Assembly: GCA_963755045.1 (NCBI GenBank)
Contig: CAVWIL010000001.1
Span: 55,484-119,483 of the forward strand
Direction: 5' to 3'
DNA from: Nitrospirota bacterium
Lineage (GTDB): Bacteria; Nitrospirota; UBA9217
Length of the DNA: 64,000 nt
Under the pieces are notes generated by a model that was not told the origin of the DNA, made no database searches, and saw only the letters and a list, made by a program, of their open reading frames with translations. Position 1 is the stretch's first letter. Every line of letters begins with the position of its first letter. The position numbers and the translations under genes are program-made. This document shows positions 4,145-58,446 of this stretch, piece by piece.

Positions 4145-4540
4145 CTACCTACCCTTCCCTTCTTCCTGTTTTCGTTTCACTGTCTCTATCTCATGCAACT
4201 CTTTATCGGTAAACCCGAAATAGTGTCCGATCTCGTGGATCACCGTATCCTGGACTATCTTTTCAATTTGTTCAGGAGATGCTGCAACACTCTCGATCGG
4301 GTGTTGGTAGATAACGATCCGATCCGGCAGCATATTGCCGTAATTCCATCCCCTCTCCGTGAGCGGGACTCCCTGGTAGAGGCCGAATAACGTCCCGGAC
4401 CGTATTCCCATATCGTTTAAAAGTTCCCGGGAAGGGAGGTCTTCTACTTCAACGGAAATATTGGCGAGTTTCTTTTTAAACTTTTTAGGAAGTTTTCGGA
4501 GGGAATTCTGAACGAGTATTTCGAATTCGGATCGGTCCAT
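4145..4540 (-). CDS. Zincin-like metallopeptidase family protein (DUF1025-like).
   Basis: Intact 131 aa ORF with the C-terminal 'HEIGHYFGFTDKEL' HExxH motif and the size typical of this family. Confidence 0.65.
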   Translation of the reverse strand: MDRSEFEILVQNSLRKLPKKFKKKLANISVEVEDLPSRELLNDMGIRSGTLFGLYQGVPLTERGWNYGNMLPDRIVIYQHPIESVAASPEQIEKIVQDTVIHEIGHYFGFTDKELHEIETVKRKQEEGKGR

Positions 4541-25458: not shown

Positions 25459-25968
25459 TCAGGCATTCTGACTACGATTCTGTTGAGTTTTCTTCATGCC
25501 TGCTTTTTGGAACAGCATGTCGATCGCCAGCAGCGCGACGCCGATCGAGATGGCCGAATCCGCCACATTGAACGACGGCCAGTACCAGGACTTGACATAC
25601 CACTGGATGAAATCGACGACCTCGCCGTAGCGTACGCGGTCGATCAGGTTGCCCAGAGCGCCGCCCGCGATAAGCGAGAAGCGAGACAACGAGCAGGCGT
25701 TCCCGGGTCTTTTTGATGAACATGGCGATCACCGCGATGGCCACGAGCGACACCGTGATGAAAAACACGCTCCGGAACGCTCCGGCGCGCCGGAAAACAG
25801 GCTGAAAGCCGCGCCCTTGTTCCGCACGTGGGTGATGTTGAAAAAACCCGGGATGACCGTGATGATCTCGTACAGCCGGACGCGCGTCTCGATAACGTAT
25901 TTCGTGAGCTGGTCGAGGACCAGGACAATGCCGATGATGGATCCGACCCAGAGATATTTATTTTTCAA
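25459..25968 (-). CDS. lspA: Lipoprotein signal peptidase II with 2 frameshifts.
   Basis: The TTG start lies 6 nt after AAGGAG. 'LDQLTKYV', '[15 protein letters not shown]' and '[31 protein letters not shown]' are present. Confidence 0.85.
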
Positions 25969-29023: not shown

Positions 29024-31503
29024 CTAGTCCGTGATCTCGTCGGGGTTGATCTTCTTTACCGGCGCTTCCGCGGCATCACCCTGGTCCAGGTTGAAGAGGT
29101 TCGTCTGCGGCTTCTGCACGGTGTCGGCGAACTTCGTGGGCTCGGTGCCCCGGCGGAACACGTCGGTGATCGCATCCGCCGTTCCCTCCCTGGCCAGAAG
29201 GCCTGATTCGGGGTCGATCTTCACGGACACGATGTCGTCGGTCGGCGTAAAGTCCTCTGCGGGCTTGTCCGCGAGCGCCCTGGCCATGACCGATATCCAG
29301 ATCGGGAGCGAGGCGCGCGCGCCTGTCTCCTTGTCGCCGAGGGAGGCCTTGGGGTTGTCGTACCCGACCCAGACACCCGTGACGATGCTCGGCGTGTAAC
29401 CTACGAACCAGGCGTCAATATAATTGTTCGTGGTGCCGGTCTTTCCCGCAATGCGGCTTGCCAAGCGACTTCGCGCCCCTGCCGGTGCCTTCCTCGACGA
29501 CGCTCTTGAGGAGGCTCGTCACGAGAAAGGCCGTGGTCCGGTCGATCGATTCGACGGGCTGCGGCTCGTAGCTCTCGAGCGGGGTGCCGTTTCCGTTCAT
29601 GATGCTCTTGATCACGATGGGCTCGGTGCGGACCCCTCCGACGCGAAGGTCGCATAGGCCGAGGTAAGTTCCAGCGGCGTCACCGCCGACGAGCCCAGGG
29701 CCGTGGTGTAGTCGTAGTTGATCTGGCTCGTGATGCCCGCCTTGCGGGCGAAATCGATGGTCTTCTCGAGCCCGATCTTTTCGATCAGCCCCACGGTAAC
29801 GGCATTGCGGGAAAGCGCCAGGGCGGTCCGGAGCCGCATGGGGCCGAGGAACCGCTCGTCATAGTTGGTCGGTTTCCACCCCTTCTTCTCGTACTCGCTC
29901 TTTTCATGGATCACGGGAAGGTCCATGAGGATCGAAGCGGGCGTGAAGCCGCTCTCGAGCGCCGCGCCGTAGATGAACGGCTTGAACGATGATCCGGGCT
30001 GCCGGTGCGCGTCGGTGGCGTGGTTGAACCCGCCTTCGACGAAATCATATCCGCCGACCATGGCGCGAACGTACCCGGTATAAGGTTCGATGGACACCAC
30101 GGCGCCCTCGACGAGCGGTGTCTGATCCAGGACAAAGGACGCGATCTGCTTTTTCTTATCGTAATCCTTCAGGCGGACCTTGATGATATCGCCCGGCTGG
30201 ACAAGCTCCTGGGGCTTCTTGAACTCCTCGGGGTCGTCCTTCTTCCTTTTCGACTTGACGAGCGCCCAGGCCATGTCGTCGTGCATGATGAAGCCCATGA
30301 GGCCACGGCCCTTGACCGTGATGTAATTGTCTCCCACGGCAAGCACGTGCGCGTTGAAACCTTCTCCGGGTTTCACCGTCACGTGGACGGTGCCCCACTG
30401 GATCGGCGTGGACTTAACCTCTTTGAACCCAACGCGGCCGCGGAACCCCTGGCGTTTGTCGAGCGCGCGGAGGCCTTCTTTGAGCGCGGTGACCGCCTGG
30501 CGCTGCAGGTCGAGGTCGATGGTCGTATAGACCTTGAGCCCGCCCTGGTACAGCTTGTCGGACCCGTATTTCTTCTCGATATACTTGCGGATGTAGTCCA
30601 CCAGGTGCGGCGCAAGCTCTTCCTGGGGCCGCAGGTTCTCAAGGTTGAGCGGCTGGTCGTAGACCTTCTTGCTCTGCTCTTCGGTGAGATACCCCTCGGC
30701 AACCATCCTCTTGAGCACATGCCACTGGCGGGCCTTCGTCAGGTCGATATCGCTGTAGGGCGAGTAGGCCGCCGGAGACTTGGGAAGGCCGGCGAGGAGC
30801 GCGGCCTCGGCCTGGTTGACCTCCCAGATGTTCTTGCCGAAATAGGTCTTGGCAGCCATCTGGACGCCGTAAGCGCCGTGGCCGAAGTAGACCTTGTTCA
30901 GATAGAGCTCGAGGATCTCCTGCTTGGTCAACTCCTTCTCGATCCGGCGCGCAAGGATCACTTCCTTGATCTTCCGCTGGATGCTCCGCTCGGACGTGAG
31001 GAACACGACCTTCGTCAACTGCTGCGTGATGGTGCTGCCGCCCTGGGCCACCCGCACCTCGATGATGTTCTTGAGCGCGGCACGCATGATCCCGCGGTAG
31101 TCGATGCCCGTGTGCTGGAAAAAGCGCGGGTCCTCCGTGGCCAGGAGCGCGTTCACCATGTATTTCGGGATCCGCTGGAGCGGGACGTAGACGCCCTTCT
31201 CGATCCTGATATGGCCCAGCACGCGCCCGTCCTCGGCGAGGATCATCGTTCCCGGGCTCGGCTTGTAGTCCTTGAGCGATTCCACCGTGGGAAGGCCGAA
31301 GGAGAAGAATGAAGAACAGGAGGGCGACAAAGAGCACGCCGGCCACGAACGCGAGACCGGCAAGCATCAGCGCCTTTTTCGGCGTCAGGCCATGGAGCAA
31401 CGGCACGAGCGATCGTGAACCAGAAGACCTTGAACTTTTCCCAGGCAAAACGGGCGAACTTCTTGAGCAGTTCAATAATTGCTTGAAACCATTTCTTTAT
31501 CAT
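29024..31503 (-). CDS. mrcA: Class A penicillin-binding protein (PBP1A: transglycosylase/transpeptidase) with at least 3 frameshifts.
   Basis: An N-terminal TM segment is followed by the GT51 motifs 'ATEDPRFFQHTGID' and 'GGSTITQQLTK'. The transpeptidase motifs 'PGSSFKP' and 'GKTGTTNN' follow. The pieces are ORFs 31243-31503, 29612-31363 and 29024-29464. Confidence 0.85.
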
Positions 31504-31710
31504 ATGCGATTTTTAAGGATAACCTCGGGATATTCCGTCTGTTTTTGGGCGGTCTGAAAATAATAACATCACGGGGGGATAAAATCAAACGAAAAGTGTA
31601 TTTCCACACACGTTTCATTGACAAGGGCCCGCAGTTTGTCATTGTATCCCCTTTGATCAATATCCACCACTGTTTTCCCACCCGCTGAAGAGACGAAAGG
31701 CCTTTCCCCT

Positions 31711-33238
31711 ATGCCGTTAAGCCACAGGACGCTGGCACAGCGGTACGATTTGATGAGCACGTATGCGCACGACATCATTCTTCTCGTCCATCCGGAGGGA
31801 AACATCCTTGACGCCACCGAGCGTGCCTTGGCAGCCTACGGCTATTCACGCGAAGAACTGCTCCGGCTGACCATCAAGGACATCCGCGCTCCCGAAACCT
31901 AGCACGATATCCCAAACCAGATGTTTCAGGTGGAGGCGCTGAAGGGACTGGTCTTTGAGACCGTGCACAAGCGGAAAGACGGTTCGACATTCCCCGTTGA
32001 GGTCAGCTCGCGGCTGATCGAGCTCGATGGGACAAAGTTTCTTTTTGAGCATTGCCCGCGACATCACCGAGCGCAAACAGGAGGGGATCGCTTTAATCAG
32101 CGAAAAGAACAGGTCAGAGGCGATCATCGCCGCCATCGGTGACGGGATCAGCATCCAGGACCGGAATTTCAAGGTGATTTACCAGAACCAGGTCGACAAG
32201 GAAATTCATGACAATCATGTCGGTGTATATTGCTACAAAGCCTATGAGTATAAAAACGAGACCTAAGAAATCTACGAAGTGGAGGCAACCTTCAAAGACG
32301 GTATGATCCATACAACAGAGAGATCGGGTCCTGACCGATAATGGTTATGATCCATGTCGAAATAACATCCTCTCCGCTCAAGAACGAATCCGGGAAGATC
32401 GTGGCGGGGATCGAGGTGGTCAGGGACATTACCGCGCGAGGCCGTGGGTCAACTCGCAGGAGGGATAGCCCACGACTTGACCAATATTCTGACTACGATC
32501 ATCGGATACAGCCATCTGCTCTTGATGAAGATGGACAAAGGCAGTCGGGGCGTCAGTTTGCCGAGCAGATCATCACCTCATCCGAACGAGCCGCCCATCT
32601 GACACGTAGCCTTCTTGCCTTCAGCCGGAATCACGTCATGGACGTGAAGGCGATCGATCTGAACGTCATCATCAAACGGTCTGAACAGCTGCTCGGGCGG
32701 GTCATCGGCGAGGACATAGAGTTCAGGATCGAGCGGTCTGGAAACGAATTGTCGGTTTTGGCCGACGTAGTGCAGATCGAACAGGTCCTTATGAATCTTG
32801 CGGCCAATGCGCGGGATGCCATGACGGTCGCCGGGATCTTGCTGATAGAAACGGAAGAAGTAACGCTGGGAGAAGACTTTATCAGGGCCAATTCCTACGG
32901 AAGACCCGGGAAGTACGCATGTTTGTCGGTAACGGATACCGGCATCGGAATGGATGAAAACACCAGACTCAGGATCTTCGAGCCCTTCTTTACAACTAAG
33001 GAGGTCGGGAAAGGCACTGGACTCGGCCTCTCGATGGTATACGGCATCATAAAGCAGCACGACGGTTATATCAATGTATTCAGCGAACCTGGAAAAGGCA
33101 CGACATTTAAAATATACTTTCCCCTGATCGCCGCAGTAGCAGTCAAAACGGGAGCTCCTGCTCATACCGAGATCTCACGGGGAACGGAAACCGTGATTAT
33201 AGCAGAGGATGACAAAACTGTTCGCGACCTGACCAGAT
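31711..33238 (+). CDS. PAS-PAS hybrid sensor histidine kinase. It has several frameshifts and is truncated in its receiver domain by the poly-G run.
   Basis: PAS pieces read '[17 protein letters not shown]' and '[22 protein letters not shown]'. The HATPase motifs read '[14 protein letters not shown]', 'DTGIGMDE' and '[12 protein letters not shown]'. The receiver domain starts '[16 protein letters not shown]' and then runs into the G run. Confidence 0.8.
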
Positions 33239-33451
<213 letters not shown>

Positions 33452-33484
33452 GAATCCCAAATGACCTCATGATATAATATCGTT

Positions 33485-33537
33485 AGCTCCGAACTCCAAA
33501 CTACTGACTACGAACTGTATTTAATCACTCCGAACTG
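33485..33537. repeat. CTCCGAACT-unit array, copy 1 in forward orientation.
   Basis: The sequence is agctccgaactccaaactactgactacgaactgtatttaatcactccgaactg. It overlaps the last codons and stop of the hemerythrin gene. Confidence 0.8.
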
Positions 33538-33949
33538 ATTGCCCCGGACCCTTCCCGCTTCTCAGAAACTCCCCGTACTTCATGTCCAATTTCATGATAT
33601 GGTCGACGATCCAGTCCACCACCACCTGGTTCGTGGTTGCGGAAAGATGATACGAGCCGCCCTGCATCCGCGTCAGGCTGCTCCTTGAGGCCGCAAGCAT
33701 GGCAAGATATTTCTTGTGGTCCTTCCGCTGTTCCTCCAGCCCCCCATAATTCGAATCGCGCATATGTTTTTCCTCTTCAGAGAAGTGGATCCGCGCGTAA
33801 TCATCGAGGAACTGGATCGTCCCTTCAATCTCGGCATTGCAGCGGTGCTCTTTGATGGCAATGGCCAGGTTGTTGATCCGTTTGAAAAGCTCTTTGTGCT
33901 GGCTGTCGATCGTGGTGATGCCCGTCGCCAGCTTATTAACCCATTCCAT
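33521..33949 (-). CDS. Bacteriohemerythrin.
   Basis: GGGAGG-N7-ATG at 33949 opens the ORF. It carries 'WVNKLATGITTIDSQHKELF', 'HFSEEEKHM', 'HKKY' and 'WIVDHIMKLDMKY'. Confidence 0.85.
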   Translation of the reverse strand: MEWVNKLATGITTIDSQHKELFKRINNLAIAIKEHRCNAEIEGTIQFLDDYARIHFSEEEKHMRDSNYGGLEEQRKDHKKYLAMLAASRSSLTRMQGGSYHLSATTNQVVVDWIVDHIMKLDMKYGEFLRSGKGPGQSVRSD

Positions 33950-34076
33950 AAAAAAGCCTCCCGGTGCGCACCATGGATAACGGATAATACCAAGGAGAAC
34001 ATGGCTAGTCAAGAGACGGAGGGATGTATGATCCAGGTCATTTGACAGGGGGGCCAAAAGGCAGTAATATATCTCC

Positions 34077-34863
34077 ATGAAGACTGCCGTCGAGCTCTAC
34101 AGGCTTTTACCGAGGACCAATTGCGGCAAGTGCGGTCTCCCAAGCTGCTTTGGCTTCGCTGCGAAGCTTGCTACACGCCAGGCGCGTCCGGCTGATTGTC
34201 CCGAAATGGCCGATGCTGCGCGTGAATCCTTCGCGAGGCCGGTGGCGGAACAGCATGGCTCGCCGGCACCGTATATGAGCAGGCCCTCGCATTCTTGCAG
34301 CCTAAAGATTCGAGCATTGGATTTTGAGAAGGTAGCGACTCTTTACGCCGTGACATCAGTGGGCACGACGAGCTTAAGATCGGATTTCTGAACGAGAATT
34401 ATATCGTCACCAAGAGAGGATTATGGATCCGGCGGTAAGGAACCCGGCCCTGGATATCATCCTCATCTACAACCATCTCTGCATTCCCGATCCGCCTCCG
34501 CATTCGGGAGAATGGATAACCTTCGGCTCGGTGCCTGCATCTCACGCAAAGGACAAGGCCTGGGCCGGCCACGTGGAGGAAGTGATCGCGAAGCATTTTA
34601 CCGGAAAGGTGGATGCGCTCAAGGCCGCCTGCGAGCGGCTCGGGGGAGTTACCGCGAACGCTCAGGGGAACCACGACGCAGCCTATGCATTCCGCTTCTT
34701 CCCTAACTATCCCGCGCTGCTGCTGTTCTATGATGCCGTTCCTGGTGAAGATTTTCCCGCGCAATGCAGACTGCTTCTGGACAAGACCGCGCCGCGTTAT
34801 CTGGACATCGAATCGATCGTCGTACTGGGGGAGGAGTTTGCTATGCGGCTTACAGCCGCGTAG
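34077..34863 (+). CDS. Fe-S-domain / DUF3786 protein with frameshifts near 34280-34420.
   Basis: The N-terminal Fe-S domain reads 'LPRTNCGKCGLPSCFGFAAKLA..ADCPEM'. The C-terminal part in ORF 34423-34863 is DUF3786-like ('FRFFPNYPALLLFYDAVPGEDFPAQCRLLLD'). Confidence 0.6.
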
Positions 34864-34906
34864 TTCGGAGTTGTGTGTTCGGAGTTTTGATTTCGTAGTT
34901 CGGAGC
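34861..34906. repeat. CTCCGAACT-unit array, copy 2 in reverse orientation.
   Basis: The sequence is tagttcggagttgtgtgttcggagttttgatttcgtagttcggagc, with three AGTTCGGAG units. Confidence 0.85.
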
Positions 34907-34927
34907 TAGATGACTTCATAAGCCCGC

Positions 34928-35262
34928 TCAGCATCTTCGATATTTCCGTACAAAACAATCTCGATTGTTTTTTCGTTTCTTCATAAAATAGGATTGCCTA
35001 TAAGATATCTCACTGATCGCAAAGCATTCCCTGGCAGATCTTCGAGATATTTTTACATATTGATTGAACTCTGGTTTTGTCCCGCCGCTGCCTTCCGCGA
35101 TGTTCAAGCATATAGAGGTCGCCGCTCTTTTGAATTGATCGGTCAAGAGCAAACAGCTCTTCTTTTGGAAATGTTTAGTAACTCTGATAAACAAAATCAA
35201 CATATTCCAACGCTCGTTGATAAACCTTCAGATTTTCAAAATCAAATGCAGCTTCGCACCAT
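34928..35262 (-). CDS. Four-helix-bundle protein (23S rRNA intervening-sequence protein family, PF05635-like) with 2-3 indels.
   Basis: 'FDFENLKVYQRALEYVDFVYQ' lies in one frame and 'VTKHF..LTDQFKRAATSICLNIAEGSGGTKPEFNQYVKISRRSARE' in another. The size, about 111 aa, fits the family. Confidence 0.75.
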
Positions 35263-35274
35263 AATACTCGTCTG

Positions 35275-35336
35275 CGAACTCCGAACTCATTACTCCGAAC
35301 TCTATTTTAACGCTCCGAACTCTTAACTCCGAACTA
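35275..35336. repeat. CTCCGAACT-unit array, copy 3 in forward orientation.
   Basis: The sequence is cgaactccgaactcattactccgaactctattttaacgctccgaactcttaactccgaact, with five units. It is inverted relative to 34861-34906. Confidence 0.85.
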
Positions 35337-35340
35337 TTAC

Positions 35341-36087
35341 TTATTCATGCCTGACCGCGTGAATAAGAAATTCCACGTTCCCGTCCTGGCCCTGAATCGG
35401 TGAAGGGATGACACCCTTTACGTCAAGGCCGATGCTCCGGATGAAATCCGAGATTGTCTTGACTGCCGCGGCCCGCGCTGTCTCATCCCGCACGATCCCG
35501 CCCTTGCCCACCTGTGCCCTCCCGACTTCGAACTGAGGCTTGATGAGCGCGATCAATTCCGATCCGGGCCCGAGAAACTGCATGATCGAAGGGATTACCT
35601 TTTCAAGAGAGATGAACGAAGCATCGATCACCACGATAGCGACAGGCCCGGGGATGAGAGAAGGTTCTATGGTGCGAATGTTGGTGCGTTCGATGACAAC
35701 CACGCGAGGATCCTGCCGGAGCTTCCACGCCATCTGGCCGTAGCCCACGTCCACGGCATAGACTTTTTCGCACCCATGCTGGAGCAGGCAGTCGGTAAAG
35801 CCGCCGGTTGATGCTCCAACATCGAGGGCAGTCTTACCCGCAACAGACACCTCGAATTCTTTTAATGCTGACTCAAGCTTCAGTCCACCCCGGCTTACGT
35901 AGGGAAGCTGCTCGCCAAGGATGCGGATCTCTGCGTCTTCGGGAACAAGCGAGCCGGACTTGTTCTGTTTCTGCTCGTTCACGAGCACCTGGCCGGCAAT
36001 GATCAGTGCCTGAGCACGCTCGCGGCTTTCCACCAGGCCTCGTTCAACAAGCAGACGGTCGAGGCGTATTTTGCCGATCTTTTTATT
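35341..36087 (-). CDS. tlyA: TlyA-type rRNA 2'-O-methyltransferase (hemolysin A family). The start codon is unresolved.
   Basis: The S4-like N-terminus reads 'KIGKIRLDRLLVERGLVESRERAQALI'. 'YVSRGGLKLESAL' and 'LDVGASTGGFTDCLLQHG' follow. An in-frame TAA at 36088-36090 limits the ORF, and no ATG, GTG or TTG lies upstream of the S4 motif. Confidence 0.8.
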   Translation of the reverse strand, partial: NKKIGKIRLDRLLVERGLVESRERAQALIIAGQVLVNEQKQNKSGSLVPEDAEIRILGEQLPYVSRGGLKLESALKEFEVSVAGKTALDVGASTGGFTDCLLQHGCEKVYAVDVGYGQMAWKLRQDPRVVVIERTNIRTIEPSLIPGPVAIVVIDASFISLEKVIPSIMQFLGPGSELIALIKPQFEVGRAQVGKGGIVRDETARAAAVKTISDFIRSIGLDVKGVIPSPIQGQDGNVEFLIHAVRHE

Positions 36088-36282
36088 TTACGTGCTTGCC
36101 CATCGGTGGAAAAATAAGTTCGCAACATTGTTGATATTCGCAACATGAGCCTACAGAAGCGGTTGAGGCTGTCAACGTGACAACCGTTGCGTAATCTGTT
36201 TTTTTATTGATGTTTTTTCCGGATTGAATTAAACTAGTATTCGATGCAGATGTCATCAGAGCTGCGCGTGGAGGCTGTGCAT

Positions 36283-36754: not shown

Positions 36755-38678
36755 TCACACGTCCTTTGTCCGTAGCGGCGTAACAAGGGAAACGACCTTG
36801 GGGCGGGACTTTTCGACGAACTCCCTGACGGAAGAATAAATGCCGTTCGCATCAAGGCCGTATTTCTGCCGGAGAACTGCCTGCGGGCCGTGTTCAATAT
36901 ACATGTCCGGCAATCCGATGCGGTGGGTCTTGATCCCCGTCACCCCTTGTGCATCCAGACATTCGAGCACGGCGCTGCCAAAACCGCCCATGAGCGCGTG
37001 TTCCTCCACCGTCACGATCCATCCCGTTTTCTTCGCCACGGAAAGAATCATCTCTTCATCAAGCGGTTTTACGAACCGCGCATTTATCACCGCCACGGAG
37101 ATCCCCTCTTCGGAGAGTCTCTCGGCCGCTTCGACCGATGGAGTGACCATCGTGCCGATGGCGATGATCGCGACATCGCGCCCGTCCCTGATCAGTTCCG
37201 CCTTGCCAATGGAAAGGGTCTTGAGCTCCTGGTCCATGGGAACGCCGAGGCCGATGCCGCGCGGATACCGGATTGCCGTGGGGCCTTCGTATTCAACCGC
37301 GGTCTTGATCATGTGCTGCAGTTCGTTCTCATCCTTCGGCGCCATCACGATGATATTGGGGATATGGCGAAGATACGCAATGTCAAACACGCCGTGGTGC
37401 GTCGGTCCATCCTCTCCGACGAGACCGGCCCGGTCAAGCGCGAGCGTCACCGGCAGGTTCTGGAGACAGAGGTCGTGCACCACCTGGTCGTAGGCTCGCT
37501 GCATAAACGTGGAATAGATCGCGGCGACCGGATGCATCCCCTCCACCGCAAGGCCGCACGCAAACGTAACGCCGTGCGATTCTGCGATGCCCACGTCGAA
37601 AAACCGGTCGGGAAACTCTTCGGCAAACAGGTCGAGCCCGGTGCCCTCGGACATGGCCGCCGAGATGGCGACGATCTTGTCGTTGTCCTCGGCGAGTTTG
37701 ATCATGGTCTGACCGAACACCTCGGTGTAGCTCATAATGGGCTGTTTCTTTGACACGACTTTGCCCGTCGCCGGATCAAAGGGTGGTGTGCCGTGATACT
37801 GTGACGGATTGCATTCCGCGAATTCGCAGCCCTTGCCTTTTCGGGTGATCACATGGACCAGCACCGGCCACGGATAATCCTTGATGTTCTCAAATGCCTG
37901 AAGGAGCTGGTCGATATTGTGCCCGTCCAGGGGGCCCAGGTACTGGAAGCCGAGATCTTCAAACAACATGCCCGGCACCATCAGACCCTTGAGGGAATCC
38001 TCCGCCTTCTTGGCCAGGTTGAACATGGATTCACCGACCCGGGGGATGCCCTGCAGAAAGTGCTTGGCGTCCTGGCGCAGCTTTGTATAGAAATGTCCGG
38101 TCATCTTCCTGCTGAGATATGATGAGAGGGCGCCCACATTCGGCGAGATGGACATCTCGTTGTCGTTCAGGATGACGATCAGGTTCTTTTTCAGGTGACC
38201 CGCCTGGTTCATTCCCTCGAATGCCAAACCGGCAGAGATGGACCCGTCGCCGATCACGGCGATCACCCGGAAGTCCTCACCCTTGATGTCCCTGGCCGAG
38301 ATCATCCCGGTGCCGGCGGATATGGATGTGCTTGCATGTCCCACATCGAAATGGTCGCAGAGGCTTTCCTCCCGTTTGGGGAATCCGCTGATCCCGCCGT
38401 ACTGACGGAGCGTGGAAAACCGGGCTGCGTCTTCCTGTCAGGATCTTGTGGGCGTACGCCTGGTGCCCCACATCCCAGACAATCCGGTCGTTCGGCGTAT
38501 CAAAGGCGTAATGCAGGGCGATGGTCAGGTCCACGACCCCGAGGCTCGAGGCCAGGTGTCCGCCGGTCTTCGACACTACCGCGATGATCTCCTGACGAAG
38601 TTCCTCGGCCAGCGTCGGCAGTTCCGCCTGGGGAAGCGACCTCAGTTCTTGAACATTGTTCACTTTATCGAGTATCAT
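36755..38678 (-). CDS. dxs: 1-deoxy-D-xylulose-5-phosphate synthase with one frameshift near 38300-38350.
   Basis: '[42 protein letters not shown]' is in ORF 38277-38774. '[18 protein letters not shown]' and the transketolase-like C-terminus are in ORF 36755-38344. Confidence 0.9.
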
Positions 38679-38795
38679 GGTTACCTCTCGGTTGATGCGG
38701 TCACGGCAACGATGCCCGTGTTGGTAGCGTCTTTCGTTATTTCGCAATGTTACGACAGACGTTACCGACGACATCGGGCCTCGTCACCAATCTTT

Positions 38796-40226: not shown

Positions 40227-41659
40227 TTATCCGAGATATTGTTTTATATCGATTTTGGTGGTGTTCGGATCAATGGTGCCGACCGGGGAGCGCCGATAAT
40301 GCCCTCCTGCGGTCTCCAGAAGACTTATGTCCTGGGTCTCCTTTTCCGATCCGTCGAAGCGGGTCAAAATCAGAACGCGGGGACGCATCAAATCGCGCGT
40401 TTGATGCATGACAAGACCGATCTCACCCGTATCCAGTTTAAGAAGGGTCCCGATGGGGAAAATGCCGACCATGTTGATAAACGCCTTGAGAAGGACGGGG
40501 TCGCTGGTGATGCCCCGGTTCTTGATCAAGATCCGGATGGACTGGTCCGGGGGCATCTGGGAGCTGTAATATACCCGCGCCGCCGTGAGCGCTTCATAGG
40601 CATCGGCGAGGGCCACGATCTGAGAAAAGGGATGCCGCTCATGTTGAATGCTCACCTGCGGATAGCCCCGGGCTCCTCCGTGTTGGTGGTGCTCAAAAGC
40701 CGCCACCATGGCCAGCTTGGACACGCCCGGATTGTCGACGAGAACCAGCGCACCTTCGACGGGATGCCGTTTCATCTGCATTCCACTCTTCATCCGTGAG
40801 TTTGCCGGGTTTATTGATGATCTCGAGGGGGACCGTCGTTTTGCCGATATCATGCATCAGCCCCGCCATACCCAGGAGTGGCGATCTTCGGCTTGTCAAA
40901 TGAGAGAAAGGTCCCGAGGGAGGCCGCGAGGATCGAGGTGTTCACGGAGTGGGCGAAGGTGTATTCATCGTACATCTTGAGGCCGGTCAAGCCCATGAGG
41001 GCGTCCCGGTTATCCAGGATATTGTCAACCATGGTTTGTACGACCGAATTCACTTTTCGCGCACTGGATAACTGGCCAAGATGCATTGCCTGGACCATCT
41101 CCTGCACCGTGTCGACTGCGTCCTTGAATACCTCGGAGGCCCTCTTCTTTCCCGCCTTGAGGTCAATACCCGTCTTCTTTTCGACAAGGACCACGTTGTG
41201 AAGCACGATGTGCGGGATTCCCTCTTTCACGATTACGGTATGGATTCCGCCCTGTCCGGTAAGATACGCGGGTTCTTTGTTCATGAGACCGGCAAACCGG
41301 ATCAATTCCCCAGAGGTAAGTCCCGGTGTGAAGACAACCCCGCCCACGTCCCTCGTGGTGAATTGTTCCAGCAGCAGGGAAAGCACCTGATCGATCGGAA
41401 CGGATATCTTCTCAAAAAACAGCTCACCGCCGACAAGATAAGAAAGCCACTTCCTTCCGTTCCACGAGCAGTTCTTCGATCTTGCCGCGGAATTTGTCCG
41501 CTGCTGTAAGCAGATACGGATGCGCTTCCGGATACAGGGTCGCGTTTTTCAGGATGGCGGCAAGCTGCTGGAATGCGGTCCGCGCCGAGTCGATTAAAAG
41601 TTGTTTCGCGTAAAAGGACTGCCTCGCCTCTCCCCGGCTATCTCCCTGTTCGTCCGCCA
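40227..41659 (-). CDS. HD-GYP domain c-di-GMP phosphodiesterase-type protein with an N-terminal sensor-like domain and about 2 frameshifts.
   Basis: 'GLMHDIGKTTVP', 'HPVEGA' and 'EHHQHGGARGYP' are present. The N-terminal pieces are in ORFs 41424-41687 and 40850-41386. Confidence 0.75.
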
Positions 41660-43737
41660 TCGCCCTGTCTCCTCTTGATCTCTTCACCCGCCCGCTCCGA
41701 CGCTGCTTTGAGCTCCTTCTGAAGTTTCCGGGGTTTCCACCACCGGATGACTGAATATCTTTTCAGAAATTCCATTGCCTCCCGTCCGCCGATTTTTCCC
41801 AGCGCCTTAATCGCCTCTATCGTCAGTTCCTGTTCTTTCTTTCTCAGGGGCCGGCCCTCCAGGAACTCAATCAGCGGTCTTGATTCCTCGGCACCGATGC
41901 CGGGAAAATCCCCATAGGCATGGATAGCCGTCACCTGGACGCCGGCATCTTTGTCCCGAAGCAGCTTCGCCAGAATACTGGCCGCCTTCTTCCCGCCGAC
42001 GGTGAGCAGACCCTTGATGACCTCCTGCCGGATACGGGCATTCTCGTGGTCTGCCGCCTTTCGAAGAAATGCAAGTGCCTGGTCCGTCTTGCTTTCTCCC
42101 AGAACGCTCACGATATTGCGCACGAAATACCAGCGCCCGTCTGTAAGCAGTTCCCCGAGCAGTGCGATCTGGTTCCTGCCGACATCCTTCAGGAGATCGA
42201 GATAGAAGATCCGCGCCAGTCGGTCCTGTTCCTCCGCCATGAGCTCCAGAAGGATTTCTGTTGCTTCCCGTTCGATTTTTGAAATATAGGAATAGGCCGC
42301 CTGGTATTCTCGAGAACCCTTGTGGATGCTTTCTCAGTTCGCCAATCGCCGACATAACGACGGATTTGGATGATGTCTTTTTGAGGGCCTCCTTTAGCCT
42401 CGGCTGGAATGCCGTGTCCACAGGCATGTGAAATGCTTGGATAACGCCCAAGGCACCGTCATAATCCTTTTCCTTCAAAAAATAGTTCAGCATGTCCTCA
42501 AGCTGGTGGACTATGTTGGAAAACCGGGTGAATTCCTTCTCTTCCGGTAGGGCATGCCGAGGATTTTTGGCGAGAGGCAGCAAACAGATGTAGGTGCGCA
42601 TCGCTGCCTGCAATATATCGGATTCCGTGCCGGCTTCCTCGATAACTTTGAGTCGTTCCAACTCTTCCGGACTGTACTCAGCCATTTCCTTGGCAATCAC
42701 GGGGAGGTCCTGGGATAGGGGCGCGGCTTCCACGGCAGCGGGAGGCACCGGAGGTGTAGGTGGAAGGGCTTTTTTTGATGTTGATTTTTTCAGGAGTGTC
42801 GACACCTGCTGCACGGTCCAGGCATGGGAAAAACGCCCTGCCTGGACCTCATGAATCGCGGAAGGCAGGAGCTGTTCAGCGTCGGCCGGCTGTTCAGCCG
42901 CCATTTCCGTATCCAGGTCTTTATAAAATTTGCCGGTCACGAGCGCGTCGCGAAAGTTAGGTTCGAGAGAAAGAACGGACTTGCCCAGGCTCTCGAACAT
43001 GGCGTCACCCTGTCCGGCATGCTCAGCTTCAATCTTTTGTCCCGCTTCCTGGTACAGGGCATACAGCCGGTCCTCCACGCTTTCATCTTCAGCGTGTGTC
43101 CGCTTTGCAAGTTCAAGCATGCTGAATGCGAACCCCGAGGGATCGCTGATAAGCTCGCCGAGGACCAGTGTACGCCCAAAAAATACTTTTTCCTCCCTGG
43201 CTTTGGACTGCTCTGAACTTGCCGTTGTTGCAGTGGTCCCCGATGCGGTCTTATCCATCAAACCCATGGACATCTTCGTGGTTATGATCTCATCAAGACC
43301 CGCCTCGGCCACCTTGATATGCGCTGCTCCCTTTTCCCAGAGGATCGAAGAGATGCCGTTCCTCAGCGCCATGTCTTCCGATGACAGGGCGAGGGCACGA
43401 CAGAGCTCCAGCAGCTCCGCCTCGGTCACCCGGCGCTGAAGACAATCTCACGGATCCCTTTTGCGAACAGGTCCTGTGCAATGGCCCTGTTCAGCTGCGC
43501 CTCTTTCCCGACAGGCGTGCGCCGGTAGGTGAAATTGGTTTTTTGCACGCCGATGGTGTAGTCCTGCGCCGTGGTCAGAAAACGGTCCAGCAGTTCAAAA
43601 GATTTTTTTATTGACTGGGAATAAACGGGATTATTGGGAGGATAAATCTTAACCGTCCTGAACGCCGAAACGAGGGCGCGCATGACATCTTGCACTTCAG
43701 GGGTAAGCAGTTCTTCCTGTTCGATATCTTTCTGCAT
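41638..43737 (-). CDS. HEAT-repeat protein (~700 aa) with about 2 frameshifts.
   Basis: The C-terminal HEAT/PBS-lyase-like repeats read 'RWYFVRNIVSVLGE..ARIRQEVIKGL..DAGVQVTAIHAYG'. The N-terminal domain resembles that of the downstream HD-GYP protein. Confidence 0.6.
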
Positions 43738-46004: not shown

Positions 46005-46059
46005 GCGCATAGAGCAGAGCGCATGGGGCATTTTATTTAAACGCTATGCGCTATGCGCC
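46005..46059. repeat. Intergenic inverted tandem-repeat hairpin with unit ~CTATGCG.
   Basis: gcgcatagagcagagcgcatgg opposes cgctatgcgctatgcgcc, with the spacer ggcattttatttaaa. Confidence 0.8.
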
Positions 46060-46069
46060 AAGCACCATG

Positions 46070-50067: not shown

Positions 50068-50156
50068 GCATAGAGCATAAGTGCAGAGCGCAATAGATGT
50101 TTAACTGCTCTATGCTCTATGCTCTATGCTCTATGCTCATGCTCTGCTCATGCTCA
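50068..50156. repeat. Intergenic inverted tandem-repeat hairpin with unit CTATGCTC (4 tandem copies).
   Basis: gcatagagcataagtgcagagcgcaatagatg opposes ctgctctatgctctatgctctatgctctatgctcatgctctgctcatgctc. The right arm reaches the ftsY stop. Confidence 0.85.
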
Positions 50157-51059: not shown

Positions 51060-51074
51060 GGAGTACCTCAAATG

Positions 51075-51199
51075 AATTGGAAATTGGAAACTGAAAATTG
51101 GAAATTTGAGATTGATAAAAAGACTACGACCAGTTCCCTTTAATTTAAAATTTCCAATTTACAATCTTCAATTTCCAATTCGACATACGCAGTATGTCG
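51075..51199. repeat. Intergenic inverted tandem-repeat hairpin with unit ~AATTGGAAA, plus a small hairpin.
   Basis: aattggaaattggaaactgaaaattggaaattt opposes aaaatttccaatttacaatcttcaatttccaatt. The hairpin cgacatacgcagtatgtcg lies at 51181-51199. Confidence 0.85.
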
Positions 51200-53715: not shown

Positions 53716-53800
53716 CACGGATGAACACAAGCTTAAGCCGGTATTTCATTCCGCAATCCGCACTCCGAAATCGAATCACTCCATCTCGTGTTCATGTCCT
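53716..53800. repeat. Intergenic hairpin whose interior carries a TCCGCA-unit array.
   Basis: The outer stem pairs cacggatgaacac with gtgttcatgtcct. The interior reads cattccgcaatccgcactccgaaatcgaatcactcc. Confidence 0.6.
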
Positions 53801-56756: not shown

Positions 56757-57575
56757 ATGCAGCATTCCAGCCCTTATAATCCGATCACGAGCAAAGACAA
56801 CAGCTTCATAAAACACCTGCGCGCCCTTTCCGATCCAAAACACCGGAAAAAGGAACAGGTCTTTTTAATCGAAGGCGTTAAAATGGTCGAGGAAGCCCTC
56901 CGGGACAAGGCTGGCGTTACCATGGTCATAGCCTCACCCTCTCTCGTACAACATCACGGCAAGGGTGTGATCAAGCTGGCGGAAACAAGATCAATCGACA
57001 TTCTCTGGATCTCGGATAAACTGATGGATGCACTATCGGAGAGCAAAACACCTCAGCCGGTGATAGCAGTTGTTACGATGAAGGAGCATAGCGAAGATGA
57101 ACTCTTGGCTCATGGCTCAAAGCTCATCGTTATCTGCCACCAGCTCCAGGACCCTGGCAATCTCGGTACCATCATCAGAACAGTCGAGGCTGTTGGCGCG
57201 GCCGGTGTAGCGATCACATCAAACACGGTTGATCCTTTTAGCGCCAAGGCCGTACGGGCGTCAATGGGCAGCATACTCCGGCTTCCCGTGGTGCGCATCG
57301 GGGACAGTAAGGCATTCATGAGGCTTAGCAGGCAGAAGGGTTATCAGACCGTCGCAACTGTCGTGACCGGAGAAAAGGCCCACTTTGATATCGACCTCAA
57401 AAAACCGACTGTCATTATTTTAGGACAGGAGGGCGCCGGTCTGCCACATGATATCGTGGAAGAAGTCGACCTCCGCGTTCGCATTCCCATGGCCGATACG
57501 ATCGACTCATTGAATGTTGCAACCTCCTCTGCAGTGGTCCTGTACGAAGCAATGAGACAGAGAATGCCAAGGTAG
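56757..57575 (+). CDS. TrmH/SpoU-family RNA 2'-O-methyltransferase.
   Basis: Intact 272 aa ORF with a substrate-binding N-terminal domain, 'LQDPGNLGTIIRT', 'ILGQEGAGL' and 'SLNVATSSAVVLYE'. Confidence 0.85.
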   Translation: MQHSSPYNPITSKDNSFIKHLRALSDPKHRKKEQVFLIEGVKMVEEALRDKAGVTMVIASPSLVQHHGKGVIKLAETRSIDILWISDKLMDALSESKTPQPVIAVVTMKEHSEDELLAHGSKLIVICHQLQDPGNLGTIIRTVEAVGAAGVAITSNTVDPFSAKAVRASMGSILRLPVVRIGDSKAFMRLSRQKGYQTVATVVTGEKAHFDIDLKKPTVIILGQEGAGLPHDIVEEVDLRVRIPMADTIDSLNVATSSAVVLYEAMRQRMPR

Positions 57576-58344: not shown

Positions 58345-58446
58345 CTCCAGAAGACAGAAGCCAGGAGCCGGAATCCAGCATGTTGGTTCAGAATCCTTTA
58401 TGCCGGCTACTTACTCCAGACTACTGACTCCTGACTCCTGTCCTCA
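58345..58446. repeat. Intergenic inverted tandem-repeat hairpin with unit ~CTGACTCC.
   Basis: The left arm is ctccagaagacagaagccaggagccggaatccag and the right arm is ctacttactccagactactgactcctgactcctgtcctc. The core is 15/19 complementary. Confidence 0.7.

Follow-up and report, generated by a model that had tools for sequence, protein, structure and literature searches.

How does a small gene of the family described from the intervening sequences (IVSs) of 23S rRNA come to lie between two protein-coding genes, enclosed by two arrays of short repeats that face one another? The question is raised by positions 34861-35336 of a 64,000-nucleotide stretch of a Nitrospirota genome (contig CAVWIL010000001.1 of assembly GCA_963755045.1), which is referred to here as the window. 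A reading of the letters alone (the original prediction) had placed a four-helix-bundle (4HB) gene at 34928-35262, between a DUF3786 gene and tlyA, had described opposed arrays of three and five units on its two sides, and had proposed an IVS-like cassette outside rRNA. The arrays are real and exist as described. On comparative evidence, it has been shown that the gene and its two arms form a module which a Nitrospirota clade has kept at the tlyA|DUF3786 junction, that the same module is present at unrelated loci in other phyla, and that the arms are part of the gene module and not of the host locus. By the same kind of evidence, about three-quarters of the sampled family members have been shown to share this anatomy with a true 23S rRNA IVS, the repeat units being specific to each clade. 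With moderate confidence, we read the locus as an IVS-type cassette, in which a PF05635 gene is held between two inverted arms in 7-nt phase; it would be one copy of a widespread, portable kind, embedded in an operon and open to processing by RNase III.

The arrays were mapped by means of a single 9-mer. In the window, CTCCGAACT or its complement is found in eight exact copies, all within three clusters (33487-33536, 34861-34906 and 35272-35336), where ~0.5 copies would be expected for one 9-mer on both strands of 64 kb; the three and five opposed units of the original prediction were borne out by this mapping. The left array (34861-34906) has AGTTCGGAG at 34862 and 34897 and a one-mismatch unit at 34876, with spacings of 14 and 21 nt. 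The right array (35272-35336) has CTCCGAACT at 35279, 35293, 35313 and 35327 along with a degenerate CTGCGAACT at 35272, its five units being spaced by 7, 14, 20 and 14 nt. Read in the sense of the gene, which is on the minus strand, the right array is the upstream arm, with five AGTTCGGAG-type units (four exact, one degenerate) between the tlyA stop and the 4HB start. The left array is in the same sense the downstream arm, in which three CTCCGAAC(T) units, spaced by 21 and 14 nt, reach from the 4HB stop codon to the stop of the convergent DUF3786 gene. The heptamer itself reads TTCGGAG upstream and CTCCGAA downstream. Throughout the arrays of the window the spacings are 7, 14, 20 or 21 nt, that is, roughly in 7-nt phase, and the left and right arrays are 83-88% complementary over 24-29 nt.

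The enclosed gene belongs to the family to which it had been assigned. Once its frame is repaired, the product scores 98.8 bits against PF05635 (cut-off 33.8 bits) and 91.6 bits against TIGR02436 (cut-off 24 bits), and even the unrepaired 91-aa open reading frame (ORF; 34928-35203) reaches 61.9 bits with PF05635, which was the only Pfam profile matched; PF22296 was not. The ends of the gene were set from intact orthologues at 34906 and 35262 on the minus strand, with an ATG at 35262 and a TAG at 34908-34906 that adjoins the first unit of the downstream arm. Of the extent first given for the gene, the start thus stands, and 34928 proved to be the stop of a frameshifted frame, the true end being 34906. 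At E<=1e-5 the repaired protein finds 841 homologues, among which intact 118-aa proteins with 91% identity are the closest. One orthologue of this length and identity, P0001, matches the solved family members 2GSC (E=1.5e-14) and 2RLD (E=1.9e-4), both of which have five chains in the crystal; the window protein is accordingly related to the solved pentameric four-helix bundles, and is itself a predicted pentamer. The position outside rRNA was also confirmed: the neighbours are tlyA (S4 and FtsJ methyltransferase domains; minus strand, 35341-36100, the end being approximate), which is the co-directional upstream host gene and has a frameshift near its 5' end, and the FeS/DUF3786 gene (plus strand, 34077-34863), which is convergent with the cassette and is split by frameshifts here. 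In a scan of 33400-36200 against Rfam no rRNA match was found, only a chance match to a long non-coding RNA (E=0.39).

In this assembly the window copy of the gene has no intact translatable ORF, whereas its orthologues are intact. Alignment with the latter revealed eight gap events in the 357 nt of the gene, at least five of them frame-shifting; an apparent in-frame TAA arises from a +1/-1 indel pair, and the G-rich Shine-Dalgarno sequence found in every orthologue has been replaced. Frameshifts relative to intact orthologues also affect dxs, tlyA, DUF3786 and the genes for a histidine kinase, a penicillin-binding protein, an HD protein and a HEAT protein. Between 30600 and 43800, by comparison with intact orthologues in L001 and L002, frameshifts run throughout conserved and essential genes, including those for the penicillin-binding protein (30635-31618), the kinase (31711-33240, with residues 249-543 of the orthologue missing), dxs (36755-38680), the HD protein (40230-41660) and the HEAT protein (41677-43737). 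The assembly is thus rich in indels, so that ORF-based gene calls in the window are unreliable and sequencing error would suffice to explain the indels of the 4HB gene; with dxs and the penicillin-binding protein, kinase, HD and HEAT genes frameshifted as well, a pseudogene call from the frameshifts of the window alone was rejected. The 4HB copy of L012, from the same kind of assembly, is likewise frameshifted. In the Illumina-assembled relative L024 the gene is a clear pseudogene, with an internal deletion of ~100 nt and a frameshift, and its downstream array has grown to ~115 nt. The lost Shine-Dalgarno sequence of the window and the pseudogene of L024 together indicate that real decay happens, and the window copy is probably decaying, with assembly error contributing. 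A run of pure G, 212 nt long (33239-33450), stands in place of ~309 nt at the 3' end of the PAS histidine-kinase/response-regulator gene, positions 7923-8231 of L002 having no counterpart in the window at this point; it looks like an assembly or sequencing artefact and not like biology.

Is the association of gene and arms a peculiarity of this locus or a property of the family? A protein-based scan, with one genome per species, gave 80 loci, two from Nitrospirota relatives and the rest distant (37-62% identity), drawn from Bacteroidota, Firmicutes, Verrucomicrobiota, Planctomycetota, Acidobacteriota, Spirochaetota, Nitrospirota, a lineage of the candidate phyla radiation (CPR) and Proteobacteria. 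The 150 nt upstream of each gene was scored for complementarity to the 150 nt downstream, and a score of at least 12 was reached at 58 of 79 loci (73%) from at least eight phyla, against 8 of 1248 windows (0.6%) shifted within the same loci (Mann-Whitney p=9e-39 for 4HB loci versus shifted controls; a cross-locus null was also computed). Autocorrelation of the flanks peaks at lag 7 (0.39) and lag 14 (0.35), versus 0.26 in controls. Clean heptamer arrays on both sides were found at 40 of 84 loci, typically with 3-5 units per array, and in 39 of these 40 the consensus units of the two sides are reverse complements of each other. The units themselves are lineage-specific (AGATGCC, GTTCATG, GTCGTAA, AGTTTCT, GGGGAGT, GAGAGTT, TGGTTCC, CTAGCTA and CGAGGGA, among others) and follow the protein tree. 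Two PF05635 paralogues on a single 12-kb contig (L172, 3730-4083 and 11636-11992) have different units, one being enclosed by CTCCGAA-type arms and the other flanked on each side by a complete TAGCGNN / NNCGCTA hairpin. The orientation of the gene is also biased: of 74 members, 63 point the same way as the gene upstream and 54 the same way as the genes on both sides. From a reading of the flanking sequence, apparent insertions separate sucC from sucD and purK from purE.

Some regularities of the units themselves were also noted. When the downstream arm is read on its coding strand, 10 of 22 unit families (loci L012-L097) contain the trinucleotide ACT (~2.4 expected) and 8 of 22 contain AAC; a universal ACT core was considered and is only partly supported (p=4.5e-5, uncorrected for the 64 trinucleotides). 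The pattern CTNNNNA fits many of the units, and the known repeat TAACTGA conforms to it after rotation, as do the units of the cyanobacterial short tandemly repeated repetitive (STRR) sequences. Two non-coding stretches (L148, 120-620; L105, 2180-2670) pack several different heptamer arrays and nested hairpins together, with units such as GTGCGGA, CAGATTA/ATCTGCG, GACCTGT, GGCCTGG and CTGCAGA, a sign that in some genomes many unit families may build up within a single spacer.

That the arms travel with the gene is best seen where the host locus differs. Homologues with ~70% identity are found after a PAS kinase gene in a Thermodesulfobacteriota metagenome-assembled genome (MAG; L096), and between lexA and the next gene on a deltaproteobacterial metagenome contig (L097). 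On either side of each stand the AGTTCGGAG/CTCCGAACT units that also enclose the Nitrospirota copies. Four-fold degenerate sites of these two genes are saturated relative to the Nitrospirota genes (from 7 of 24 to 11 of 31 identical), and despite this several exact copies of the 9-mer are retained in each compared locus; it follows that the unit sequence is constrained or continually homogenised, and that it is inherited with the gene. On all three points that had been named beforehand as decisive (membership of the 4HB family, inverted arrays beside other members, and a positional tie of the arrays to the gene), the results support the cassette idea. The arms also mislead annotation, since gene callers translate them into false N-terminal extensions: the public call for P0002 (L002, 6001-6393; 130 aa, starting MSSEFG) is derived in part from the translated upstream repeat (MSSEFGDKLGGEM...), and the conserved start with its Shine-Dalgarno sequence is 36 nt downstream of the annotated one. 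Directly downstream of the cassette in L096, the annotated start of an HTH_17 gene (4424-4470) runs through four tandem TCCGAAA heptamers, so the start has been wrongly called or else the heptamers are translated.

Within Nitrospirota, the history of the tlyA site can be followed in some detail. The genome of the window is not among the collections, in which an exact-sequence look-up of one window protein gave no match; the closest relatives there are metagenome contigs with 88-92% nucleotide identity, followed by a Nitrospirota MAG (L012; 80-89%). The gene order around close orthologues is conserved as xseB-ispA-dxs-DUF2845-tlyA-4HB-(DUF3786)-hemerythrin-kinase, and in more distant Nitrospirota (80% and 72% protein identity) the 4HB gene is at the same tlyA junction. 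In cassette-bearing loci, the stretch from the tlyA stop to the ribosome-binding site (RBS) contains AGTTCGGAG units, and 3-8 CTCCNAA heptamers begin at or just after the 4HB stop codon; the number of units varies between genomes. The upstream array was found in L001, L002, L012, L024, L092, L095 and L101. Other relatives differ: L103 is without the cassette and has a 53-nt spacer only, and L104 has an unrelated gene and no arms. In L099 the site is occupied by a GIY-YIG gene, which has a 30-nt inverted repeat of its own, and the downstream arm is retained; in L101, where both arms are kept, they enclose a GIY-YIG fragment and a 464-aa gene. In trees of the flanking genes the cassette-bearing L094 is the outgroup, which makes the cassette ancestral at the tlyA site and the variants of L103, L099, L101 and L104 secondary losses or replacements. 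At this junction a small gene of another kind thus also has inverted flanks: the GIY-YIG gene (104 aa; L099 3833-4147, also in L100, with the fragment at ~5560-5700 of L101), whose inverted repeat of ~30 nt is perfect (CTGTCATTCTGAGCAACGCGAAGAATCTCG). A further hairpin (35336-35371, minus strand) is formed at the 3' end of tlyA, the last ~15 coding nucleotides of which (ATTTCTTATTCAYGC / GCRTGAATAAGAAAT) are present in inverted copy after the stop, directly before the first arm unit; it is kept in all cassette-bearing orthologues and in L101, and is missing where the upstream arm is missing (L103, L099).

How would such an element be tolerated inside an operon? In the mechanism that we propose, the cassette would be transcribed by read-through from tlyA, its arms would pair in the RNA as a duplex of 25-45 bp around the RBS and the ORF, and RNase III would cut this duplex, by analogy with the Coxiella IVS, to free the cassette RNA from the host transcript. 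Such a release would account for the tolerance of insertions in operons and in rRNA alike. The proposal draws on the sense orientation of the genes within operons, on the Coxiella data, on the predicted folds and on the lack of a promoter. In folds of the sense strand, the two arms pair as a long-range stem around the RBS and ORF, with z=-3.9 for the window, -3.3 for L002 and -6.1 for L097, and this stem is present in both minimum-free-energy and centroid folds. Between tlyA and the 4HB gene neither a promoter-like site nor an intrinsic terminator was found, the only promoter-like site being upstream of tlyA. As the exact 9-mer has persisted past synonymous saturation, and as each clade and paralogue has a unit of its own, a sequence-specific partner is implied; the simplest candidate, more weakly supported, would be the encoded Avd-like pentameric protein, for which the cognate unit of P0001 would be (AGUUCGGAG)n in RNA letters.

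Several observations weigh against reading the locus as a portable, RNase III-processed cassette. Clear arms are wanting in 27% of sampled family members. When metagenomes were scanned from the side of the array, for two AGTTCGGAG units, 80 loci were found, of which only 3 have an adjacent 4HB gene; the other 77 do not, and among the 80 are ~35 short-loop hairpins without cargo, the rest being solitary arrays. The link from gene to arms is thus strong and that from arms to gene weak. At the orthologous site itself, L099 and L101 have arms without a 4HB gene. A LexA relative (87% identical; L229) has a lexA junction without the cassette and with a short spacer only, which in itself counts in favour of the cassette, but two TGCGGAG-like heptamers and a small hairpin are found in that spacer, which leaves the direction of gain or loss at lexA ambiguous; L229, tried as the case to decide whether arms arrive with the gene, was set aside for this reason. 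In the Nitrospirota clade the pattern points to vertical inheritance with repeated loss, and hence gives no sign of recent mobility there. At the copies examined, neither a target-site duplication nor a mobility enzyme was identified. Arm mismatches of the G.U and A.C kinds number 74 and 85, so there is no excess of G.U that would demonstrate selection on a stem in the sense RNA, and the arms may act at the DNA level. Lastly, RNase III cleavage at the focal locus is argued by analogy.

Those findings that concern arrays without genes would be expected if the heptamer hairpins were autonomous elements of the host (insulators, terminators, sites for a global regulator, or elements like miniature inverted-repeat transposable elements, MITEs), the 4HB gene being merely one small gene that lands or survives in their loops and the arms belonging to no gene module. 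The overwhelming majority of cargo-less or solitary arrays, the several cargo-less hairpins of the window itself, the dozens of gene-less paired sites of Geobacter metallireducens and the other cargo found at the tlyA site in L099 and L101 are all in its favour. It is nevertheless hard to reconcile with the difference between 4HB genes and controls in flank complementarity, with the co-divergence of unit and protein clade, with the recurrence of the same unit around ~70%-identical genes at unrelated loci of three phyla when neutral sites are saturated, or with the two units of the two paralogues in L172; and the GIY-YIG gene has a different inverted repeat of its own instead of heptamer arms. 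We consider this explanation unlikely.

It is rather improbable, in our judgement, that the cassette is instead a DNA transposon-like element, with the arrays acting as terminal inverted repeats for a transposase or recombinase supplied in trans, the 4HB gene as a passenger or accessory and RNA pairing as incidental. In geometry the arrays match inverted terminal repeats; at two loci, tlyA and lexA, there are unoccupied alleles (L103 and L229, respectively) beside the occupied ones; the mismatches of the arms are without G.U over A.C bias, short cargo-less versions are abundant in the manner of MITEs, and in Geobacter insertions of the IS110 family adjoin class-1 paired sites. Yet no target-site duplication is visible at the L097/L229 junction and no transposase was seen near any examined copy, the arms are tandem arrays of variable length and not fixed ends, and the differences of unit between clades, and between the hairpins of one genome, would call for many cognate enzymes. 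The strong bias to the sense orientation in operons points moreover to a constraint at the level of the transcript.

The co-variation of unit and protein would also suit a third explanation, in which the arrays are operators by which the 4HB protein regulates itself or its neighbours, as an ordinary pair of regulator and operator with neither mobility nor RNA excision. The typical 3-5 units per array may be set beside the five chains with which family members crystallise, and the relative Avd, of the diversity-generating retroelements (DGRs), acts within a protein-nucleic acid complex. We know of no DNA-binding motif in the PF05635 family, however, and the same anatomy is present inside 23S rRNA, where an operator would be senseless; the gene has decayed repeatedly with its arms persisting (L024, L101, Coxiella), and the host contexts are unrelated to one another. 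This explanation we regard as quite improbable.

The window has further arrays beyond the two arms. In all, nine strict heptamer arrays were counted, versus 0.1 in shuffles. A third array, absent from the original prediction, is a lone one of the same unit as the focal arms (33484-33536, plus strand; CTCCGAA CTCCAAA CTACTGA CTACGAA ... CTCCGAA; spacings of 7, 14 and 20 nt) at the convergent junction of the hemerythrin and histidine-kinase genes; the orthologous site has a full cargo-less hairpin in L001 and, in L092, a hairpin of a unit that differs by one base. Other elements, given here without strand, comprise a short hairpin of CGCTATG units (46005-46063), cargo-less hairpins at 50068-50156 (right arm (TGCTCTA)5-6), 51074-51181 ((AATTGGA)n / (TCCAATT)n with a 28-nt loop) and 58347-58445 (CCAGAAG.. 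/ CTACTGA CTCCTGA CTCCTGT), and solitary arrays at 25666-25687, 53747-53767 and 57106-57126. Each of these other hairpins and lone arrays has its own unit (CGCTATG, TGCTCTA, AATTGGA, CCAGAAG/CTCCTGA). The cargo-less hairpins may plausibly represent footprints of cassettes, their empty relatives or ligands for the 4HB protein; more weakly, those of the same unit as a 4HB gene may be its non-autonomous copies, in a relation like that of REPINs to RAYTs. A bolder proposal, which we put forward as speculation and think unlikely, is that across bacteria 4HB genes are partners of heptamer hairpins, in a REPIN/RAYT-like or retro-mobile relation. Each pentamer, specific for its own 7-nt unit, would recognise some five copies of it and would drive, or be needed for, the spread and maintenance of the hairpins of that unit. 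Were it true, the STRR and TAACTGA repeats, the paired sites of Geobacter and the ORF-bearing rRNA IVSs would all be products of one system, related to the Avd-reverse transcriptase machinery of DGRs.

What is new here has to be separated from what is not. What was known before comprises the PF05635 family, its occurrence in rRNA IVSs, its kinship with Avd, and heptamer arrays as such, including the opposed pairs of Geobacter. In the searchable literature, to which subscription journals did not belong, no description was found of a family-wide rule of gene plus inverted heptamer arms, of the co-divergence of arms and protein, or of one module in operons, plasmids and rRNA. Few uncharacterised small proteins of bacteria are as abundant as those of PF05635, which were known only from rRNA IVSs and, as Avd, from DGRs, whilst heptamer tandem repeats (STRR, TAACTGA, the Geobacter paired sites) have repeatedly been reported without an associated gene or mechanism. 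A gene with inverted heptamer arms that forms one module in operons, cyanobacterial plasmids and 23S rRNA links these three separate literatures, and turns 'function unknown' into specific experiments.

The Correia/NEMIS elements of Neisseria, which are short and have inverted repeats, are transcribed together with their host genes and form hairpins that RNase III cleaves; they are defined sequences of ~150 bp with a target-site duplication, and have no ORF and no heptamer arrays. The catalogued heptamer repeats are, like the focal arms, tandem 7-nt intergenic units, often in opposed pairs at variable distance, and have been described without an associated gene and with speculative regulatory roles. 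In Geobacter metallireducens such paired arrays were catalogued as 'global regulator sites' of classes 2-3 (PMC2700814), and TAACTGA repeats are known from Beggiatoaceae, Cyanobacteria and Bacteroidetes (PMC4679880). The focal unit CTCCGAA differs from the class 3 consensus MTYCTGA, from TAACTGA and from STRR, and the focal arms are therefore not counted among them. Cyanobacteria account for 17 of the 18 plasmid records with a homologue (in the phage collection none was found). A Nostoc punctiforme plasmid 4HB gene is flanked by (TCAGGAG)5 and (CTCCTGA)4, and CTCCTGA is common to these arms, to the class 3 sites of Geobacter (MTYCTGA, eight opposed pairs) and to the window hairpin at 58347-58445. 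In a Calothrix copy the arms are (GGGTGTA)/(CTACACC).

Two other systems share part of the design. Avd of the DGRs (bAvd, PDB 4DWL) has a homologous pentameric four-helix-bundle fold, and PF05635 is the commonest Pfam family near DGR reverse transcriptases (PMC10053308). Near the window gene and in at least 12 syntenic loci, neither a reverse transcriptase nor a pair of template and variable repeats was found, the neighbours there being xseB, ispA, dxs, DUF2845, tlyA, DUF3786 and hemerythrin. In the REPIN-RAYT system, as in the focal cassette, a single small gene has inverted repeat copies on both sides, the same repeat is scattered as short cargo-less hairpins (here the array at 33484-33536 and the ~35 of the metagenomes), and the repeat is specific to the lineage of the gene. 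RAYTs are HUH Y1 transposases (PF01797) of known DNA-cleaving chemistry, whereas the 4HB protein matches PF05635 only and has no catalytic motif, and the repeats of that system (repetitive extragenic palindromic, REP, sequences) are single palindromes, whereas the focal arms are tandem heptamer arrays.

The likeness to the 23S rRNA IVSs themselves goes deeper than was apparent to the original prediction. The IVSs differ in their host transcript, which is rRNA (helix 45), whereas that of the focal cassette is mRNA (the 3' region of tlyA): the focal locus lies outside any 23S rRNA gene, with tlyA and DUF3786 as its flanks. RNase III cleavage belongs to the rRNA IVSs, Coxiella and others, and not to the operon cassettes, as far as it has been demonstrated (PMC4990558). 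Complementary ends enclosing the element are common to the focal locus, L002, L097 and the true IVS of Azospirillum (L228). In Azospirillum lipoferum 4B AZO_p2 a homologue (PF05635, 115 bits) is situated inside a 23S rRNA gene, as identified by an Rfam large-subunit match, between inverted heptamers (CAGAGGA CGGATGA CAGAGGA... / TCCGTCC TCTGTCT TCTGTCA...) that form a long stem (z=-10.9). In the Coxiella IVS, 2-3 tandem GACAGAT heptamers, of strain-variable copy number, precede the start of S23p at the 5' end of the element, within a 28-bp terminal stem that RNase III cuts, and the ORF is decaying (PMC4990558). Like the focal cassette, the IVSs of Coxiella burnetii (S23p), Leptospira and Azospirillum have a PF05635 ORF in sense orientation, which in Coxiella and Azospirillum is enclosed by complementary ends of tandem heptamers; and in both kinds of element the ORF tends to decay whilst the arms stay.

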